From contig CBDCWP010000042.1 in NCBI GenBank assembly GCA_965223505.1, positions 1 to 64,000 on the forward strand: a stretch of DNA of 64,000 nt, in the 5' to 3' direction. This DNA is from Planctomycetota bacterium (GTDB lineage: Bacteria; Planctomycetota; PLA2; JAEUHO01). Made by a program: the position numbers and the translations under genes. The notes under the pieces were generated by a model. That model saw only the letters and a list, made by a program, of their open reading frames with translations, had not been told where the DNA came from and did not search any database. Below, in pieces: positions 3,880-8,726 of this stretch (within the stretch, counting starts at the first letter, position 1; each line of letters starts with the position of its first letter).

Positions 3880-4566
3880 ATGTCCGAGGTCGTACCCGCA
3901 CTGCGCATCCGAGACCTGAAGCGCACATTCAAGCATCCCGAAGGCGGGCGCCTCACGGCGATCGACCTCCCCCACCTCGACGTGGCGGCGGGCGAAGCGC
4001 TCGCGCTGCAGGGGGAGAGCGGCAGCGGGAAGACGACGCTGCTTCACTGCATCGCGGGCATCCTTCCGGTCGACAGCGGGACCATCGAGATCGCCGGCGA
4101 GCCCATGAGCGGTCGTTCCGAGACCGTCCGCGACCGCCTGCGCGCGAAGCACATCGGCTATCTGTTCCAGACATTCAACCTGTTGCAGGGACTCAGCGCG
4201 AAGGAGAACGTCGAGCTGGGCATGACGTTCCGTCCGCGCGGCGGCGAAGCGCCCAAGAAAGCCGCCGAGCAGGCCCTCGAACGCGTCGGTCTCGCCGACC
4301 GCATGAACCACCGGCCTTCGCAGCTCTCCGTCGGTCAGCAGCAGCGCGTCGCGATCGCCCGGGCGCTCGCCGGCCACCCCGCGTTGGTGCTCGCCGACGA
4401 GCCGACGTCGAACCTGGACCGCGCGCGAGCCGACCAGTGCCTCGAGCTTCTGCTCACCTTCGCGCGGGAAACGGGCGCCGCGCTCCTCATGGTCAGCCAC
4501 GACGAGACGGCGCTTCAACGCTTCGAGCGGCGCGAGACGCTGCGCGCGCCGGAGGCGGTCCGGTGA
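3880..4566 (+). CDS. ABC transporter ATP-binding protein (LolD/MacB-like)
   Basis: Walker A GESGSGKT, signature LSVGQQQRVAIARAL, Walker B LADEPT, SHD. Confidence 0.93.
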   Translation: MSEVVPALRIRDLKRTFKHPEGGRLTAIDLPHLDVAAGEALALQGESGSGKTTLLHCIAGILPVDSGTIEIAGEPMSGRSETVRDRLRAKHIGYLFQTFNLLQGLSAKENVELGMTFRPRGGEAPKKAAEQALERVGLADRMNHRPSQLSVGQQQRVAIARALAGHPALVLADEPTSNLDRARADQCLELLLTFARETGAALLMVSHDETALQRFERRETLRAPEAVR

Positions 4567-5813
4567 ACGTGCTTTCCCTCGCTTGGCGAAGCGTCCGTCA
4601 GCGGCCGCTGTCGAGCGTCCTGACGGCGGTGTCCGTCGCGCTCGGCGTCGCCCTCACGATCGGCGTGCTGCAGATTCGCGAGGCCGCGCGGGACTCGTAC
4701 GCCAAGGTCGCGCAGGGCTACGACGTGATCCTCGGTCCGACCCACGGCTCGCCGCTCACCATCGTGCTCAACACGATGTTCCACATCGGGGACGCGAAGG
4801 GCACGGTGCCCTGGGAGATCTACGAGGCGGCGCAGGCGGACGAGCGCGTCGCCCGCGCCGTGCCCTACGCGGTCGGGGACACGTTCCGCACCCATCACGT
4901 GGTCGGCACCTCGGAGGAGCTCTTCACGACGCTCACCGATCGCGATCAGACACCCCTGGGCGCCGAGATCCGCGGCCGCATGTTCCATCCGAAGCGCTTC
5001 GAGGCCGTCGTCGGGAGCATCACGGCCGGCACCAACGGGTTGCGGCTCGGCGACGAGTTCTTCCCGAGCCACGGGCTGACGCCGGGCGGCAAGGAGCACA
5101 CGCAGGATCCGTTCGTGGTGGTCGGCGTGCTGCGCCCCACGGGCACGCCCGCGGACCGGGCGATCTTCATTCCGATCGCGATGTTCTACGAGATCGAGGA
5201 TCACAAGAAGGCCACGGACATCCTGCGCAAGCAGCGCGGTGACGACGACCTCGAGGACCACCGGATCCAGGGGCTCTCCGCCGTCGGCATCAAGCTGCAC
5301 GTGCCCTATCAGCGCTACGAATACCTGGCGGAATTCCGGCGCGGTCGCGCGCAGGCGCAGGCGGCGATTCCGGTCAACGAGGTCGGCGAGCTGATGCGTC
5401 TCGTGGAGAAGATCGACGTCGTCTTCGAGCTGATCGCGTACCTCGTCGTGCTCGTCGCCGCGGTCGGCATCCTCGTGAGCCTGTACAACACCATTCAGGG
5501 ACGCCGGCGTGAGATCGCGATCCTGCGCGCGCTGGGCGCGCGCCCGCACCACGTCTTCACGGTCATCGTCCTGGAGTCGCTGCTGATCTGCATGCTCGGG
5601 GGCCTCTTGGGGCTGTTGGTCGGCCACGGCGCGATGGTGGCCACGGCGCCCACGTTGGTCGAGCGGTACGGCGTCGTCGTGTCCGGCGGTTTCCAGTTGC
5701 TCGATCTTCAGATCATGATCGCACTGGCCGTCGTCGGCGTCGCCGCCGGCGTGCTGCCCGCGTGGCGCGGATTGCGCACACCGGTCGCCGAGAACCTCCA
5801 CCCGCAAGATTGA
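4563..5813 (+). CDS. ABC transporter permease (MacB/FtsX type)
   Basis: GTG overlaps upstream stop; N-terminal TM, periplasmic domain, RRREIAILRALGA motif, three C-terminal TMs. Confidence 0.9.
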   Translation: MNVLSLAWRSVRQRPLSSVLTAVSVALGVALTIGVLQIREAARDSYAKVAQGYDVILGPTHGSPLTIVLNTMFHIGDAKGTVPWEIYEAAQADERVARAVPYAVGDTFRTHHVVGTSEELFTTLTDRDQTPLGAEIRGRMFHPKRFEAVVGSITAGTNGLRLGDEFFPSHGLTPGGKEHTQDPFVVVGVLRPTGTPADRAIFIPIAMFYEIEDHKKATDILRKQRGDDDLEDHRIQGLSAVGIKLHVPYQRYEYLAEFRRGRAQAQAAIPVNEVGELMRLVEKIDVVFELIAYLVVLVAAVGILVSLYNTIQGRRREIAILRALGARPHHVFTVIVLESLLICMLGGLLGLLVGHGAMVATAPTLVERYGVVVSGGFQLLDLQIMIALAVVGVAAGVLPAWRGLRTPVAENLHPQD

Positions 5814-6457
5814 TGTCGCAGCTCGAACACTTCGCCGTCTGGACCCTGGGCGTCTTGATCGCCGGCGGCGTCGCCTGGTCCATCCACGTGTCGGACCGGC
5901 CCATGGGGGACGCGGCGCGCGACGCCCGGACGTTCACCGCGCGCGGCGTCCTGGGTCATGGCGACCCGCTACGCGCGAACATCGACCCGCTGCTGCCCCC
6001 CGGACTGCCCGGCGGCGTGCGCATCGACCCGGAGACGGGCTACATGGTCGGCATCGCCCTGCCGCCGGATCCCGACTATCGGGACCTCGACTGGACCGCG
6101 CTCGACGACGAGAACCTGGCCACGTCGGTGCCCGCCGAGATCCAGGCGCTCCACAACGAGCCCGTCCGCATGACGGGGTTCTTGCAAGCGTTGTACGACG
6201 TGTCGGATCTGCGCACGTTTCTGCTCGTGGGCAACCACTTCTCCTGCTGCTTCGGCCGGTTTCCAGGGCTCGGCGGCCTGGTCGAGGTGACGCTCGGCGT
6301 CGACCAGCCCGATGCCGACATGACGTTCGCGCCGATCGTCGTGCGCGGCAGGCTGCGCATCGAGCCGCTGCGCGTCAATCCCCGCGACGCCAAAAGCCGG
6401 GTGGTCTTGCTGTTTCACCTCGACGACGCGAGGGTTTCGACCCTCGACGGCGACTAG
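5813..6457 (+). CDS. DUF3299-like membrane-anchored protein (copy 1)
   Basis: TGATG coupling; N-terminal TM; VRMTGFL...FLLVGNHFSCCFG...PIVVRGRL pattern; context next to ABC genes. Confidence 0.7.
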   Translation: MSQLEHFAVWTLGVLIAGGVAWSIHVSDRPMGDAARDARTFTARGVLGHGDPLRANIDPLLPPGLPGGVRIDPETGYMVGIALPPDPDYRDLDWTALDDENLATSVPAEIQALHNEPVRMTGFLQALYDVSDLRTFLLVGNHFSCCFGRFPGLGGLVEVTLGVDQPDADMTFAPIVVRGRLRIEPLRVNPRDAKSRVVLLFHLDDARVSTLDGD

Positions 6458-6474
6458 GCACTAGGATGGGTTGC

Positions 6475-7116
6475 ATGAACGTCTGGGACCGCATCACGAT
6501 CCTGATCGGCTCGGTGATCCTGGCTGTCGGACTGTACGCCGGCGCCGCGGTGTCGGCGGAGAGCAAGGCGACCGTGCGTGACGCTCAGACCTTCACGGCC
6601 GTCGGCGTCGCGGGCCTCGCATCGGCGCCGCGCACGGTGGACGGAAACCTGATCGAACCGGTCGCGGTGCGTCTCCCCGCGGGCGTTCGCGTCGATCCCT
6701 CGACGGGCCTGCTCGTCGGCGTACGCCTGAAGGGCGACAAGGACACCACGCCCGCTCCCTGGGAGCTCTTCCGGTCGTACGACTACCAGAAGGGTCTCGA
6801 GGGGATGCCGGAGTCGATTCGCGACCTGCACGAGAAGAAGGTCGTGATGCTGGGCTTTTTGTGGGCGATCTACGAACCGGACGACATTCGCCGCTTCGGC
6901 CTCGTCGGCAGCCATTGGTCCTGCTGCTACGGCGTACCGCCCGGTTTGAGCGACGTCGTCATGGTCGAGCTCAAGGAGGGCGAAGACGGGCTGTCGCAGA
7001 CGCTCAACCCGATCCGCGTCGTCGGCACGCTGCACATCCGTGAGGAGAAGCAGGGCGGATTCACGACCGCGATCTATCACATGACCGATGCCGTCGTGCA
7101 AGTGCTCGAGTACTAG
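6475..7116 (+). CDS. DUF3299-like membrane-anchored protein (copy 2, paralog)
   Basis: VVMLGFL...FGLVGSHWSCCYG...PIRVVGTL; shares RDAxTFTAxGV and LPxGVRxDPxTG with copy 1; TAGGAT 7 nt before ATG 6475. Confidence 0.72.
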   Translation: MNVWDRITILIGSVILAVGLYAGAAVSAESKATVRDAQTFTAVGVAGLASAPRTVDGNLIEPVAVRLPAGVRVDPSTGLLVGVRLKGDKDTTPAPWELFRSYDYQKGLEGMPESIRDLHEKKVVMLGFLWAIYEPDDIRRFGLVGSHWSCCYGVPPGLSDVVMVELKEGEDGLSQTLNPIRVVGTLHIREEKQGGFTTAIYHMTDAVVQVLEY

Positions 7117-7119
7117 GGT

Positions 7120-7153
7120 GGGCGCCAACGGCGCCCGCCGCCAAACTGGCGGC
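7120..7153. terminator. Two adjacent hairpins between convergent genes
   Basis: GGGCGCC-AAC-GGCGCCC (7120-7136) and GCCGCCA-AAC-TGGCGGC (7137-7153). Confidence 0.5.
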
Positions 7154-8109
7154 TAACCGTCCGACTTGGGACGGCGCTTGACGGGTCACCCGGGTCCCGG
7201 CGTCTCCGCCTTCGGAACGGCCTTCCCGGCACGGACCGCGGCGATCGCGTCGAGCAACCAGTTCTCGCGCTCGTCGTCTTCCATCATCTCGTTGGGGTCG
7301 TTGTCGAGACTCCCGCGGAAGCGCAGCTTGCGGTCCGCATCGAGCACGAAGAAGTGCGGGGTGCGCTTGCCACCCAGCACGTCCGTCATCTGCTGCTCGC
7401 GATCCGGGATGATCCGCGTATGGAACCCGAGGCCGTCGATGAACGCCTGGTAGTGCTCCTCGGTGTCGCGGTAGTTGCAGGCGACCGCGAACAACCGCGC
7501 CTTCGAGGCCGCGAGCTTCGCGTTGATCGACTCGTTGAGCTTCTTCGACGTCGGGCAGTTGGGCGACCAGCACATCAAGACGACCGGCGCATCGCCGGCC
7601 GCGACGATCCAGTCGACGACGTCCGAGAGCGTCTCGAGGTCGGCCGCGCTCTCTTCGTTCGCCTGCAGGCCGTAGAACGAACCGGCCTTCGCCACGAACT
7701 CGCCCTTCATCATGGTGTCCAGCTCGCCGTCCTCCTGGACGTTCGCCAGAGCGGCGATCGCCGTGTCGAGCGTGGCGTCGTCCGGCGCACCCCAGGTCTT
7801 CGCGAGCGCCATGACGGACGCTTCCGCATCCGCCTTCGTGATGGCGAGCTTGCTGAGCTGAAAGGGCTTCCCGTCGACGTCGGTCGCGGCAAGGTCCGGG
7901 ACCTGTTCGCCGATGGCCACCGGACCGCTCGGCGCCGGTTCCGGCTTCGGATCGTCGTGGGGTTCATCCGCCGGCGGCGCATCCGCGGGCGGCGTGTCGG
8001 CCGGCGGCTTGTCGGCGGGCTCAGCGCCGCCGTCTTCGTCCTGTCCGCATCCGGCGAACGAGAACGCGGCGACCGCGAGGAAGAGAATCCAGAATCGACG
8101 ATCGGGCAT
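7153..8109 (-). CDS. Redoxin (AhpC/TSA-like, thioredoxin-fold) lipoprotein; probable selenoprotein with UGA at 7188-7186 read as Sec308; ACP-like insertion
   Basis: Lipobox FAGC; IGEQVPDL..TDVDGKPFQLS; WSPNCP; RTPHFFVLD..LRFRGSLDN; C-terminus ETPGPG-UGA-PVKRRPKSDG-UAG matches the family G-C-x-(I/V)-K motif. Without readthrough the gene is 7186..8109. Confidence 0.8.
7157..7174 (-). promoter_or_regulatory. Candidate bacterial SECIS hairpin
   Basis: On the mRNA: UGA + 11 nt + CCGUCC-CAAGUC-GGACGG. Confidence 0.6.
7960..8019 (-). repeat. Degenerate 15-bp tandem repeat encoding a (PADxP)x4 linker
   Basis: PADKP PADTP PADAP PADEP just after the lipoprotein cysteine. Confidence 0.7.
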
Positions 8110-8215: not shown

Positions 8216-8635
8216 CTAGGCGGCGTCGTCGACCAGCGCGCTGCCGGCCACGCGAATCCGACGTGGGCTCAGCCCCCACCGCAGCGTCCGGCCACGCGGC
8301 GTCTCGACCTCGCCGCAGCCGTCGAGCTCGACGACGAAATGTCCGTTCACGGCGATCGTGACCGGGCCGTCGCGGCACTCGATCTTCAGATCCTCGCCGT
8401 CGACGACGAGACGGCCTTCCGCATTGGAGAGGATCGCCTCGGTCGCGGTGACGTGACGCGGCGTGCCGCGTCCGCTGAATTGAAAGCCGTCGGTCCGGCC
8501 GCGTCGGACGAAGACCTGTCCGCGTCCTTCCAGGTCGATGACGACCTCGCCGGCGCCGCGCAGGCGTACGAAGCCGAAGCCGCGCAGGAGGTGCGGGCGG
8601 CTGAGAATGGGAGTGCTTTCGGTCGGTTGGTTCAT
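8216..8635 (-). CDS. Hypothetical beta-rich protein with internal repeat
   Basis: ORF with good codon bias; repeated motifs (VIDLEGRGQV / VVELDGCGEV). Start could also be 8668. Confidence 0.55.
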   Translation of the reverse strand: MNQPTESTPILSRPHLLRGFGFVRLRGAGEVVIDLEGRGQVFVRRGRTDGFQFSGRGTPRHVTATEAILSNAEGRLVVDGEDLKIECRDGPVTIAVNGHFVVELDGCGEVETPRGRTLRWGLSPRRIRVAGSALVDDAA

Positions 8636-8726
8636 GGCTGGCTCGCAATGCGCGCCGACTTCCACCATGGTCCTGTACCCGATGCCTATGCCCCGGTCGC
8701 GCGATCCGGACAGATGAGCACGGAAC

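Follow-up and report, generated by a model that had tools for sequence, protein, structure and literature searches.

PrxL of Caulobacter crescentus (CC0220, cd02969) is, according to the available part of its description, an exported protein whose two distant cysteines form a disulfide and which is kept reduced by the DsbD-like protein ScsB (PMC3322552). In the available part of a catalogue from 2026 that covers 119 prokaryotic selenoprotein families, redoxin-type selenoproteins are represented by Prx (TxxU) and by Prx-like, TlpA-like and Redoxin forms (UxxC, UxxS, UGC, CxxU) (PMC13188914). The same source gives a model of the bacterial selenocysteine insertion sequence (SECIS) as a hairpin with a loop of 3-9 nucleotides (nt), a stem of 4-16 bp, a G at the first or second base of the loop, a distance of 16-37 nt from the UGA and an energy of -7.5 kcal/mol or lower (PMC13188914). 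Here we analyzed a redoxin gene on the minus strand of a 64,000-nt stretch of DNA from a Planctomycetota bacterium (positions 1 to 64,000 of contig CBDCWP010000042.1, assembly GCA_965223505.1; hereafter the window). We consider it highly probable that this gene encodes a 318-residue exported selenoprotein of the PrxL branch, in which a selenocysteine (Sec) at position 308, specified by an in-frame UGA close to the 3′-end, is paired with the cysteine C185.

The conventional open reading frame (ORF) comprises 307 codons (7186..8109, minus strand) and ends with ...KAETPGPG, followed by TGA at 7186-7188. When this TGA is read as Sec (U), the frame runs on as U308-PVKRRPKSDG to a TAG at 7153-7155, which would be the true stop codon. 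Within the ten post-Sec codons (7156..7185) V-K-R is conserved in the orthologs and the remainder is variable and basic. The full selenoprotein coding sequence of 318 codons plus TAG (7153..8109, minus strand) would thus specify a signal peptide, a linker, a redoxin domain with an insert, Sec308 and a 10-residue tail. The ORF end, the read-through peptide, the UAG and the residue numbers C185 (codon 7555-7557) and U308 had been reported in a preliminary description of this DNA, and all of them were found in the sequence as described. The expectation voiced there that annotation pipelines truncate the gene was borne out as well: all database copies of the subfamily that we encountered end at G307. 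Among 157 database homologs, 42 end exactly at the glycine preceding the Sec/Cys column, and 65 contain the motif GCx[VIL][KR].

Orthologs were obtained by a six-frame search of 61 related genomes, to which a search of the whole 29-genome family added none. One locus (L041), whose contig ends before the Sec/Cys column, was left out of the column count, and 22 loci were readable. The codon in this column is TGA in 20 of them and TGC in the other two (L038 and L042), and neither TAA nor TAG was ever found there among the 20 diverged TGA-form orthologs. The frame after the TGA stays open for 4-26 codons and starts with x-[V/I]-K-R. In the 20 TGA forms, codon +2 is GUC (14 loci), AUC (4 loci) or GUG (2 loci), codon +3 is AAG without exception, and codon +4 is CGC (14 loci) or CGU, CGA or CGG (2 loci each). 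The changes at codons +2 to +4 are therefore synonymous or confined to V/I exchanges, which indicates purifying selection on a translated sequence. A search of genome contigs with P0001 yielded no related locus, and one with alignment A5 yielded a single locus, L051, which is a duplicate of L028; searches of metagenome contigs with A5 and with P0006 gave no match.

In an alignment of 61 sequences (A2), Cys fills the Sec/Cys column in all other rows, which represent the wider family. Only five columns of A2 are invariant, namely C185, P251, G266, G307 and U/C308. T303 is present in 54 of the 61 rows, G307 and Sec or Cys at position 308 in all 61, I, V or L at position 310 in all 61, and K or R at position 311 in 59. 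These counts agree with the motif T-x-x-x-G-C-x-(I/V)-K, which the preliminary description had cited, and the comparison of homologs proposed there came out in favor of Sec, with TGA or TGC at the column, x-[V/I]-K-R kept after it and Cys in the wider family. In a maximum-likelihood tree of 31 rows, calculated after removal of the trait's own columns, 19 Sec and 7 Cys forms are interleaved within the clade that bears the insert described below. At least five Sec/Cys changes occurred on this tree, three of which are forced by well-supported branches. The sequence G-U-x-[VI]-K-R is also present in L054 and L069, two short insert-less PRX_like1 genes from other families of Planctomycetota.

The genome (44 contigs, 92% complete, 67.4% G+C) contains selA (507 bits), selB (336 bits), selD (338 bits) and a tRNA-Sec (69 bits) with the anticodon TCA (ARAGORN), all above the curated cut-offs. 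The search for these four components suggested by the preliminary description was thus successful, and its remark that the window itself is devoid of sel genes is correct, as they are located elsewhere in the genome. In locus L010 (G000 C8:36815-40732), selA (C8:36851-38236) is directly followed by selD (C8:38315-39232). The selD gene itself has an in-frame TGA at GAGG-U-AAK, and six other genes of the AhpC/TSA family carry one at the CxxC position (UxxC or UxxU), located in G000 at C10:185735-186076(-), C43:78801-79142(+), C39:143042-143395(+), C34:163862-164218(+), C44:181560-181925(-) and C7:1438-1824(+). Their motifs are TT-U-GPC (twice), PG-U-PRC, PR-U-PAC, SW-U-PGC and PG-U-DT-U, the last with two TGAs. 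A comparison with such in-frame UGAs had likewise been recommended, and all seven genes were found to possess a hairpin 13-25 nt downstream of the TGA, mostly with a loop starting with G (GGU, GUC, GGUC, GUU). The hairpin downstream of selD (CAAGGCC-ACCUUGGA-GGCCUUG) differs from the G-first loops of the redoxin genes. The organism is selenoprotein-rich, and TGA otherwise serves as an ordinary stop codon, terminating 3639 ORFs of at least 300 codons. Among the 20 genomes with a TGA form, selA was above the cut-off in 18, present as a contig-end fragment in one (G022) and not found in one (G004), which has selB and tRNA-Sec. The assignment of UGA308 as a selenocysteine codon, as put forward in the preliminary description, is strongly supported by the codons of the orthologs, the in-frame conservation beyond the UGA and the Sec machinery, from which we infer the actual insertion of selenium.

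Three hairpins follow one another on the minus strand in the short spacer between UGA308 and a convergent DUF3299 gene. Hairpin 1 (7156..7175; GCCGUCC-CAAGUC-GGACGGU; -11.3 kcal/mol; 17 nt from UGA to loop) is SECIS candidate A. Hairpin 2 (7137..7153; GCCGCCA-GUU-UGGCGGC; -12.0 kcal/mol; 39 nt from UGA to loop), which overlaps the last base of the UAG, is SECIS candidate B and/or a terminator. Hairpin 3 (7120..7136; GGGCGCC-GUU-GGCGCCC), located 4 nt from the stop codon of the DUF3299 gene, probably acts as a terminator or stabilizer for both convergent genes. The loops of hairpins 2 and 3 read GUU on the minus strand and AAC on the plus strand, and the two hairpins together fill the 36-nt gap between the convergent stop codons. 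A terminator scan revealed no hairpin with a 3′ U-tract, and neither of these two is followed by a U-tract on either strand. A hairpin alone proves nothing, because one of at least 5 bp starting 9-18 nt downstream was also found at 286 of 1500 random TGAs of this genome, and the folding z-score of the 81-nt region is only -2.41.

The distribution of hairpins across the orthologs is more informative. A hairpin with GU in the loop that starts 8-45 nt after the UGA is present in all 20 TGA forms and in neither of the two Cys forms, compared to a background of 323/1500 after true TGA stops and 319/1500 at random TGAs; these criteria were set after the hairpins had been viewed, and the loci are mutually related. 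With tighter limits (start at 9-18 nt, at least 5 bp), 14 of the 20 TGA forms have such a hairpin, versus a background of ~5%. About 12 different stem sequences share few loops, which are CGUGA or CGUGC at 11 loci, GGUC at four and GUU, GUC or AGUUC at the rest, and covariation is argued only from this list of different stems. In the case of L022, L023, L025 and L030, the hairpin lies wholly within the translated tail, more than 60 nt upstream of the real stop codon, and therefore does not represent a terminator there. The genes L054 and L069 have canonical hairpins 12 nt after the UGA (GCGCCGCG-GAC-CGCGGCGC and UGAUACCCG-GUU-CGGGUAUCG, respectively), and in L069 the real stop codon lies within the 5′ arm. 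The closest subclade (L024, L026, L027, L028 and L030) shows the same two-hairpin layout as the window, in which a near hairpin with an A-rich loop precedes a second one at 31-43 nt from the UGA, whose loop reads GUU, CGUGA or CGUGC. A 17-nt hairpin, AGUCCG-CGUGA-CGGACU, is identical in L024, L026, L028 and L033, where it is located just after or over the real stop codon. These loci come from four genomes of three genera, and their proteins are only about 40-55% identical; the hairpin is more conserved in nucleotides than a terminator would require. Similarly, AGCCCG-CGUGA-CGGGCU recurs in L031 and L044.

Several results weigh against a Sec308 that is decoded in this way and paired with C185. 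The orthologs all belong to one 29-genome family and hence are not independent of each other. The genomes with the Cys form (G010 and G021) also carry the Sec machinery, so that its co-occurrence does not separate Sec from Cys forms. Hairpin 1 had been proposed as the SECIS-like element in the preliminary description; its stem CCGUCC/GGACGG is real, extends to 7 bp and has its first paired base at the 11th nt after the UGA, but neither of the first two bases of its loop is a G, which breaks the G rule of the published model. Hairpin 2, at 39 nt from the UGA, lies 2 nt outside the published range of 16-37 nt. An Rfam scan of positions 7050-7300 (E up to 10) detected no SECIS family, and its lone hit (veev_FSE, 12.6 bits, E 7.3) is at chance level. 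When the published criteria were applied together with the energy limit of -7.5 kcal/mol, 9 of the 20 orthologs passed, compared to 366 of 3000 background sequences. Criteria i-iii alone discriminate little, because 2198 of 3000 random TGAs (73%) pass them; by our own reading of the rows, a stable hairpin conforming to rules i-iii is present in 18 of the 20 orthologs. RNAalifold predicted 0 pairs for MAFFT alignments of the 48 nt following the UGA (20 loci) and of 30-nt windows (15 loci), because the distance of the hairpin varies and the hairpins are not aligned. Furthermore, the available part of the study on Caulobacter PrxL reports that no peroxidase activity was detected for this protein (PMC3322552).

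The hairpin bound by SelB would be either hairpin 1 or hairpin 2. It is quite conceivable, at somewhat less than an even chance, that Sec is inserted with hairpin 2 (7153..7137, GUU loop) as the SECIS and that hairpin 1 is a folded spacer shortening the effective distance. This arrangement would fit the other Sec genes in the genome, whose loops start with G (GGU, GUC, GGUC, GUU, GGUC), the GUU loops of L023, L030 and L069, the two-hairpin layout shared by the closest subclade and the deviation of hairpin 1 from the G rule. On the other hand, the distance of 39 nt exceeds not only the published range but also the 20-29 nt of the genome's other Sec genes, terminators are expected in the gap between convergent genes that hairpins 2 and 3 fill, and hairpin 1 has a GU at 21-22 nt after the UGA, which we take to be about where E. 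coli fdhF has G23-U24.

Based on sequence profiles and a structural model, the protein is a member of the PRX_like1/PrxL (cd02969-type) branch of the thioredoxin fold; the link to cd02969 is made through the family motif and PMC3322552. Caulobacter PrxL is the one characterized protein of this group that we encountered. The Pfam families AhpC-TSA (PF00578, 35.7 bits) and Redoxin (PF08534, 29.9 bits) matched residues 173-273 above the cut-off. A profile built from the 61 relatives matched the structures 2YWI (E 2.5e-42), 3U5R (E 8e-40) and 2CVB/2YWO (E 5.4e-37) over their full length, and the match extended to the C-terminal G-C-s-I-K-W of these structures. Residues 62-318 were modeled with AlphaFold2, with U entered as C; the model had a mean predicted local distance difference test (pLDDT) score of 96.6, and its top Foldseek matches were 2cvb, 2ywo ("reduced"), 3u5r and 2ywi, with target template modeling (TM) scores of 0.74-0.76. 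The active-site helix of the model (model positions 125-141, residues 186-202) begins right after C185. The hallmarks of PrxL are present, that is, the Cys of x-x-x-C-P at the active-site helix and the C-terminal G-C-x-[IV]-K, with U in place of the second Cys. In NCBIfam release 20.0 no fitting model was found; the only hits, DsbE (22.6 and 21.9 bits) and ResA (17.7 bits), scored far under the cut-offs.

Two other assignments were considered and rejected. The peroxiredoxin family (cd02971) is characterized by P-x-x-x-T/S-x-x-C; S182 and C185 are present in the window protein, but position 178 is L, and the conserved Arg is missing, as 23 of the 61 rows of A2 have T at position 249, 13 have R and 9 have V. 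The UxxC-type Prx-like and TlpA-like groups do not fit either, as the motif of the window protein is S-P-N-C without a UGA and the Sec lies 123 residues downstream. In two PRX_like1 homologs, L052 (G316) and L058 (G259), the active-site Cys is kept and the C-terminal Cys is gone (...GPG-F-RIQF and ...PRG-V-RID, respectively), so that a two-residue center is not universal in the PRX_like1 family. Many PRX_like1 domains across the phylum are located in open frames of 600-730 codons, e.g., G131 C1:1811502-1811927 and G107 C1:1311033-1311458, which suggests fusions with other domains.

We propose that SelB and Sec-tRNA(Sec), recruited by hairpin 1 (+11..+30) or hairpin 2 (+33..+49), would decode UGA308 as Sec, and that ten further codons would then be translated before the ribosome stops at the UAG. 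Because the Sec is close to the C terminus, the recoding signal shares sequence with the final codons, the stop codon and the 3′ untranslated region. The protein would be exported and probably lipid-anchored. Sec308 would substitute for the invariant C-terminal Cys of G-C-x-[IV]-K and, together with C185 of S-x-x-C-P, would form a two-residue center cycling between the selenol/thiol and the selenenylsulfide. A membrane transporter of the DsbD/CcdA/ScsB type would be the likely reductant, and the genome contains two genes of the DsbD_TM family, at G000 C36:9521-10150 and C11:6459-7109; we infer the reductant, and the same holds for the physiological substrate.

The predicted pairing of C185 with Sec308 draws on the joint invariance of the two positions, on analogy with Caulobacter PrxL and on the separate oxidized and reduced structures from Thermus (2CVB and 2YWO, the latter designated "reduced"). 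It appears unlikely that Sec308 is inserted but unpaired with C185, acting either alone, e.g., as a ligand of a metal or metalloid, or across subunits in the manner of the resolving Cys of typical 2-Cys peroxiredoxins. Such a role would be in line with the use of 2ywi as an A-type dimer template with a "resolving" C-terminal Cys, as stated in the available part of PMC3091736, and with the S-C-C motifs of the neighboring DUF3299 proteins. It is opposed by the fact that C185 and U/C308 are among only five invariant columns and by the modeled packing of the region near residue 308, where the pLDDT is ~95. In addition, oxidized Caulobacter PrxL migrates faster, which its authors, in the part of the report available, ascribe to compaction by a disulfide between the two distant Cys residues (PMC3322552).

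That UGA308 is a genuine stop codon, the product being a 307-residue one-Cys redoxin and the hairpins mere terminators, is very improbable. In accordance with a stop, gene callers and public databases end the protein here (P0002-P0020), hairpins after stop codons are common (891 of 1500 under loose criteria without the GU rule), and the hairpins of the window are non-canonical as SECIS elements. However, a stop leaves unexplained why 20 diverged orthologs have TGA and never TAA or TAG at a column of invariant Cys, why an in-frame V/I-K-R with synonymous changes follows, why two relatives have TGC and why the hairpin lies within an open tail of 21-26 codons at four loci. Selenium-free read-through of UGA308, whether by a local change of the code or by a near-cognate tRNA that inserts Trp, Cys or Arg, is the least credible explanation, as nothing specific speaks for it beyond the fact that it would likewise keep the downstream frame under selection. 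Against it, 3639 long ORFs end in TGA, so that the codon has not been reassigned; the column alternates with Cys only, and the genome possesses seven further Sec-type UGAs along with a complete Sec system.

Besides Sec308, the reading frame contains several further features, all on the minus strand. A signal peptide (8047..8109) with the lipobox-like end MPDRRFWILFLAVAAFSFAG-C21 was recognized by direct reading of the sequence. The RR at residues 4-5, the hydrophobic core and S-F-A-G-C21 presumably correspond to the lipobox pattern. C21 is absent in most orthologs, which instead have ordinary signal peptides of the A-x-A type. The preliminary description had called the protein an exported lipoprotein, which the N-terminal features of the window protein would fit. 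The signal peptide is followed by a Pro/Asp/Ala-rich linker (residues 22-61; 7927..8046), a stretch that is unaligned in the orthologs. According to alignment A2 and the model, an insert of ~85 residues (88-172; 7594..7848) is located between the first beta-hairpin and the active-site strand. It is helical in the model with pLDDT values above 94, has no Pfam family and was seen only in the window's own family within a 301-genome sample of the phylum. A comparison of the insert with the PDB gave only chance-level matches to helical-repeat proteins and acyl carrier proteins (best E 3e-4), with no stretch passing alone, and chance probably accounts for its weak full-length likeness to acyl carrier proteins (E 0.009-0.9). 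The codon for C185 (7555..7557; C in 61/61 rows) lies in W-S-P-N-C-P at the N terminus of the active-site helix, and that for P251 (7357..7359; P in 61/61 rows) in a T-P motif, which we take to be the cis-proline position of the thioredoxin fold.

The synteny shared by many of the orthologs consists of an RlmI-like methyltransferase gene, a gene for a 150-residue protein, the redoxin gene, a convergent pair of DUF3299 genes and a MacB/FtsX permease gene, and no functional link is evident in this conserved arrangement. In the window, the two tandem DUF3299-like genes are located at 5762-6457(+) and 6466-7116(+) and encode the S-C-C motifs HFSCCFG and HWSCCYG. They are preceded by the MacB/FtsX-type permease gene at 4437-5813(+) and converge on the redoxin gene, an arrangement that is conserved at most ortholog loci. 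The ORF for the 150-residue protein (8216-8668, minus strand), which has no Pfam family, lies just upstream of the redoxin gene on the same strand, is kept at this position in seven ortholog loci and may be transcribed together with it.

As the database copies end at G307, a redox-active residue would be missing from public protein sets and from the models derived from them. Selenoprotein searches that require conservation of the ORF and of the flanks on both sides of the TGA, as described in the available part of PMC1088965, can miss a Sec located 4-26 residues from the stop codon, and further cases of C-terminal Sec may exist. For the PrxL family, there are solved structures and a known reductant, and a Sec at the distal position would provide a clue to the catalytic residue. 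In the course of evolution, Sec tends to come to lie where a protein is most reactive. If the genes do constitute an uncatalogued family, this would point to the C-terminal residue as the catalytic nucleophile of PrxL proteins. The genes would also be natural examples of bacterial Sec decoding by a hairpin that lies mostly 3′ of the stop codon, in some cases beyond the usual spacing.

Selenoproteins with a thioredoxin fold are commonplace; what is new here is the position of the Sec as the distal partner near the C terminus, the PrxL-like family and the layout of the recoding signal. In the available part of the 119-family catalogue, cd02969 is not among the entries, and none of the families listed has a Sec at this C-terminal position (PMC13188914). 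The form is also unmentioned in the parts covered of the literature on GOS, Sargasso, Olavius, deep-Sep and BSepDB, a coverage that includes PMC2398784, PMC1088965, PMC1976440, PMC12013277, PMC13326102 and PMC4807772 with 12 of 14 supplement files and lies outside the BSepDB family table and Haft and Tolstoy; the BSepDB supplementary data examined contain no match for it, and text searches of the literature likewise yielded no account of such a protein. We see an even chance that these genes represent an uncatalogued selenoprotein family, that is, PrxL redoxins with Sec as the distal C-terminal partner (G-U-x-[VI]-K-R), found in at least three families of Planctomycetota, with repeated Sec/Cys exchange, a hairpin straddling or following the stop codon and, in one subclade, a two-hairpin signal outside the published model.

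Mammalian thioredoxin reductase has a C-terminal G-C-U-G with a Sec-Cys selenenylsulfide in the flexible tail of a flavoenzyme and a SECIS in the 3′ untranslated region. In contrast to its adjacent Cys and Sec, the partner Cys of the window protein is 123 residues away and the protein has a thioredoxin fold. The families UXX-star, KCU-star and GUXX-star, compared by their entries in the available table, share with the window gene a Sec few residues before the stop codon, a hairpin largely past the coding region and truncation in databases, but the sequence of the window protein is unrelated to them (PMC13188914). Sec-peroxiredoxin (PxxxTxxU) belongs to the same AhpC/TSA Pfam family, and S182-x-x-C185 aligns with its T-x-x-C/U; the window protein differs by the absence of the Pro of PxxxT (L178) and of the invariant Arg and by a Sec that is not at the peroxidatic position. 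The thioredoxin-fold selenoproteins of the UxxC type (Prx-like, thiol-disulfide isomerase-like, TlpA-like and Redoxin) are, as far as the available part of the catalogue describes them, likewise exported and have Sec in place of a redox Cys (PMC13188914). In their case, however, the Sec lies mid-gene within CxxC and gene callers split the gene in two, whereas in the window the motif Cys is kept, its distal partner is the predicted Sec and the gene merely seems 11 residues short. The closest correspondence is found with the PrxL/cd02969 group (CC0220, 2CVB/2YWO from Thermus, 2YWI from Geobacillus and 3U5R from Sinorhizobium), which has the same fold, the motif T-x-x-x-G-C-x-I-K and two distant redox residues. 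The window protein is distinguished from this group by the predicted Sec in place of the C-terminal Cys, by Ser at the first position of the CxxC-like motif (S-P-N-C), by the 85-residue helical insert and by its lipoprotein-like N terminus.

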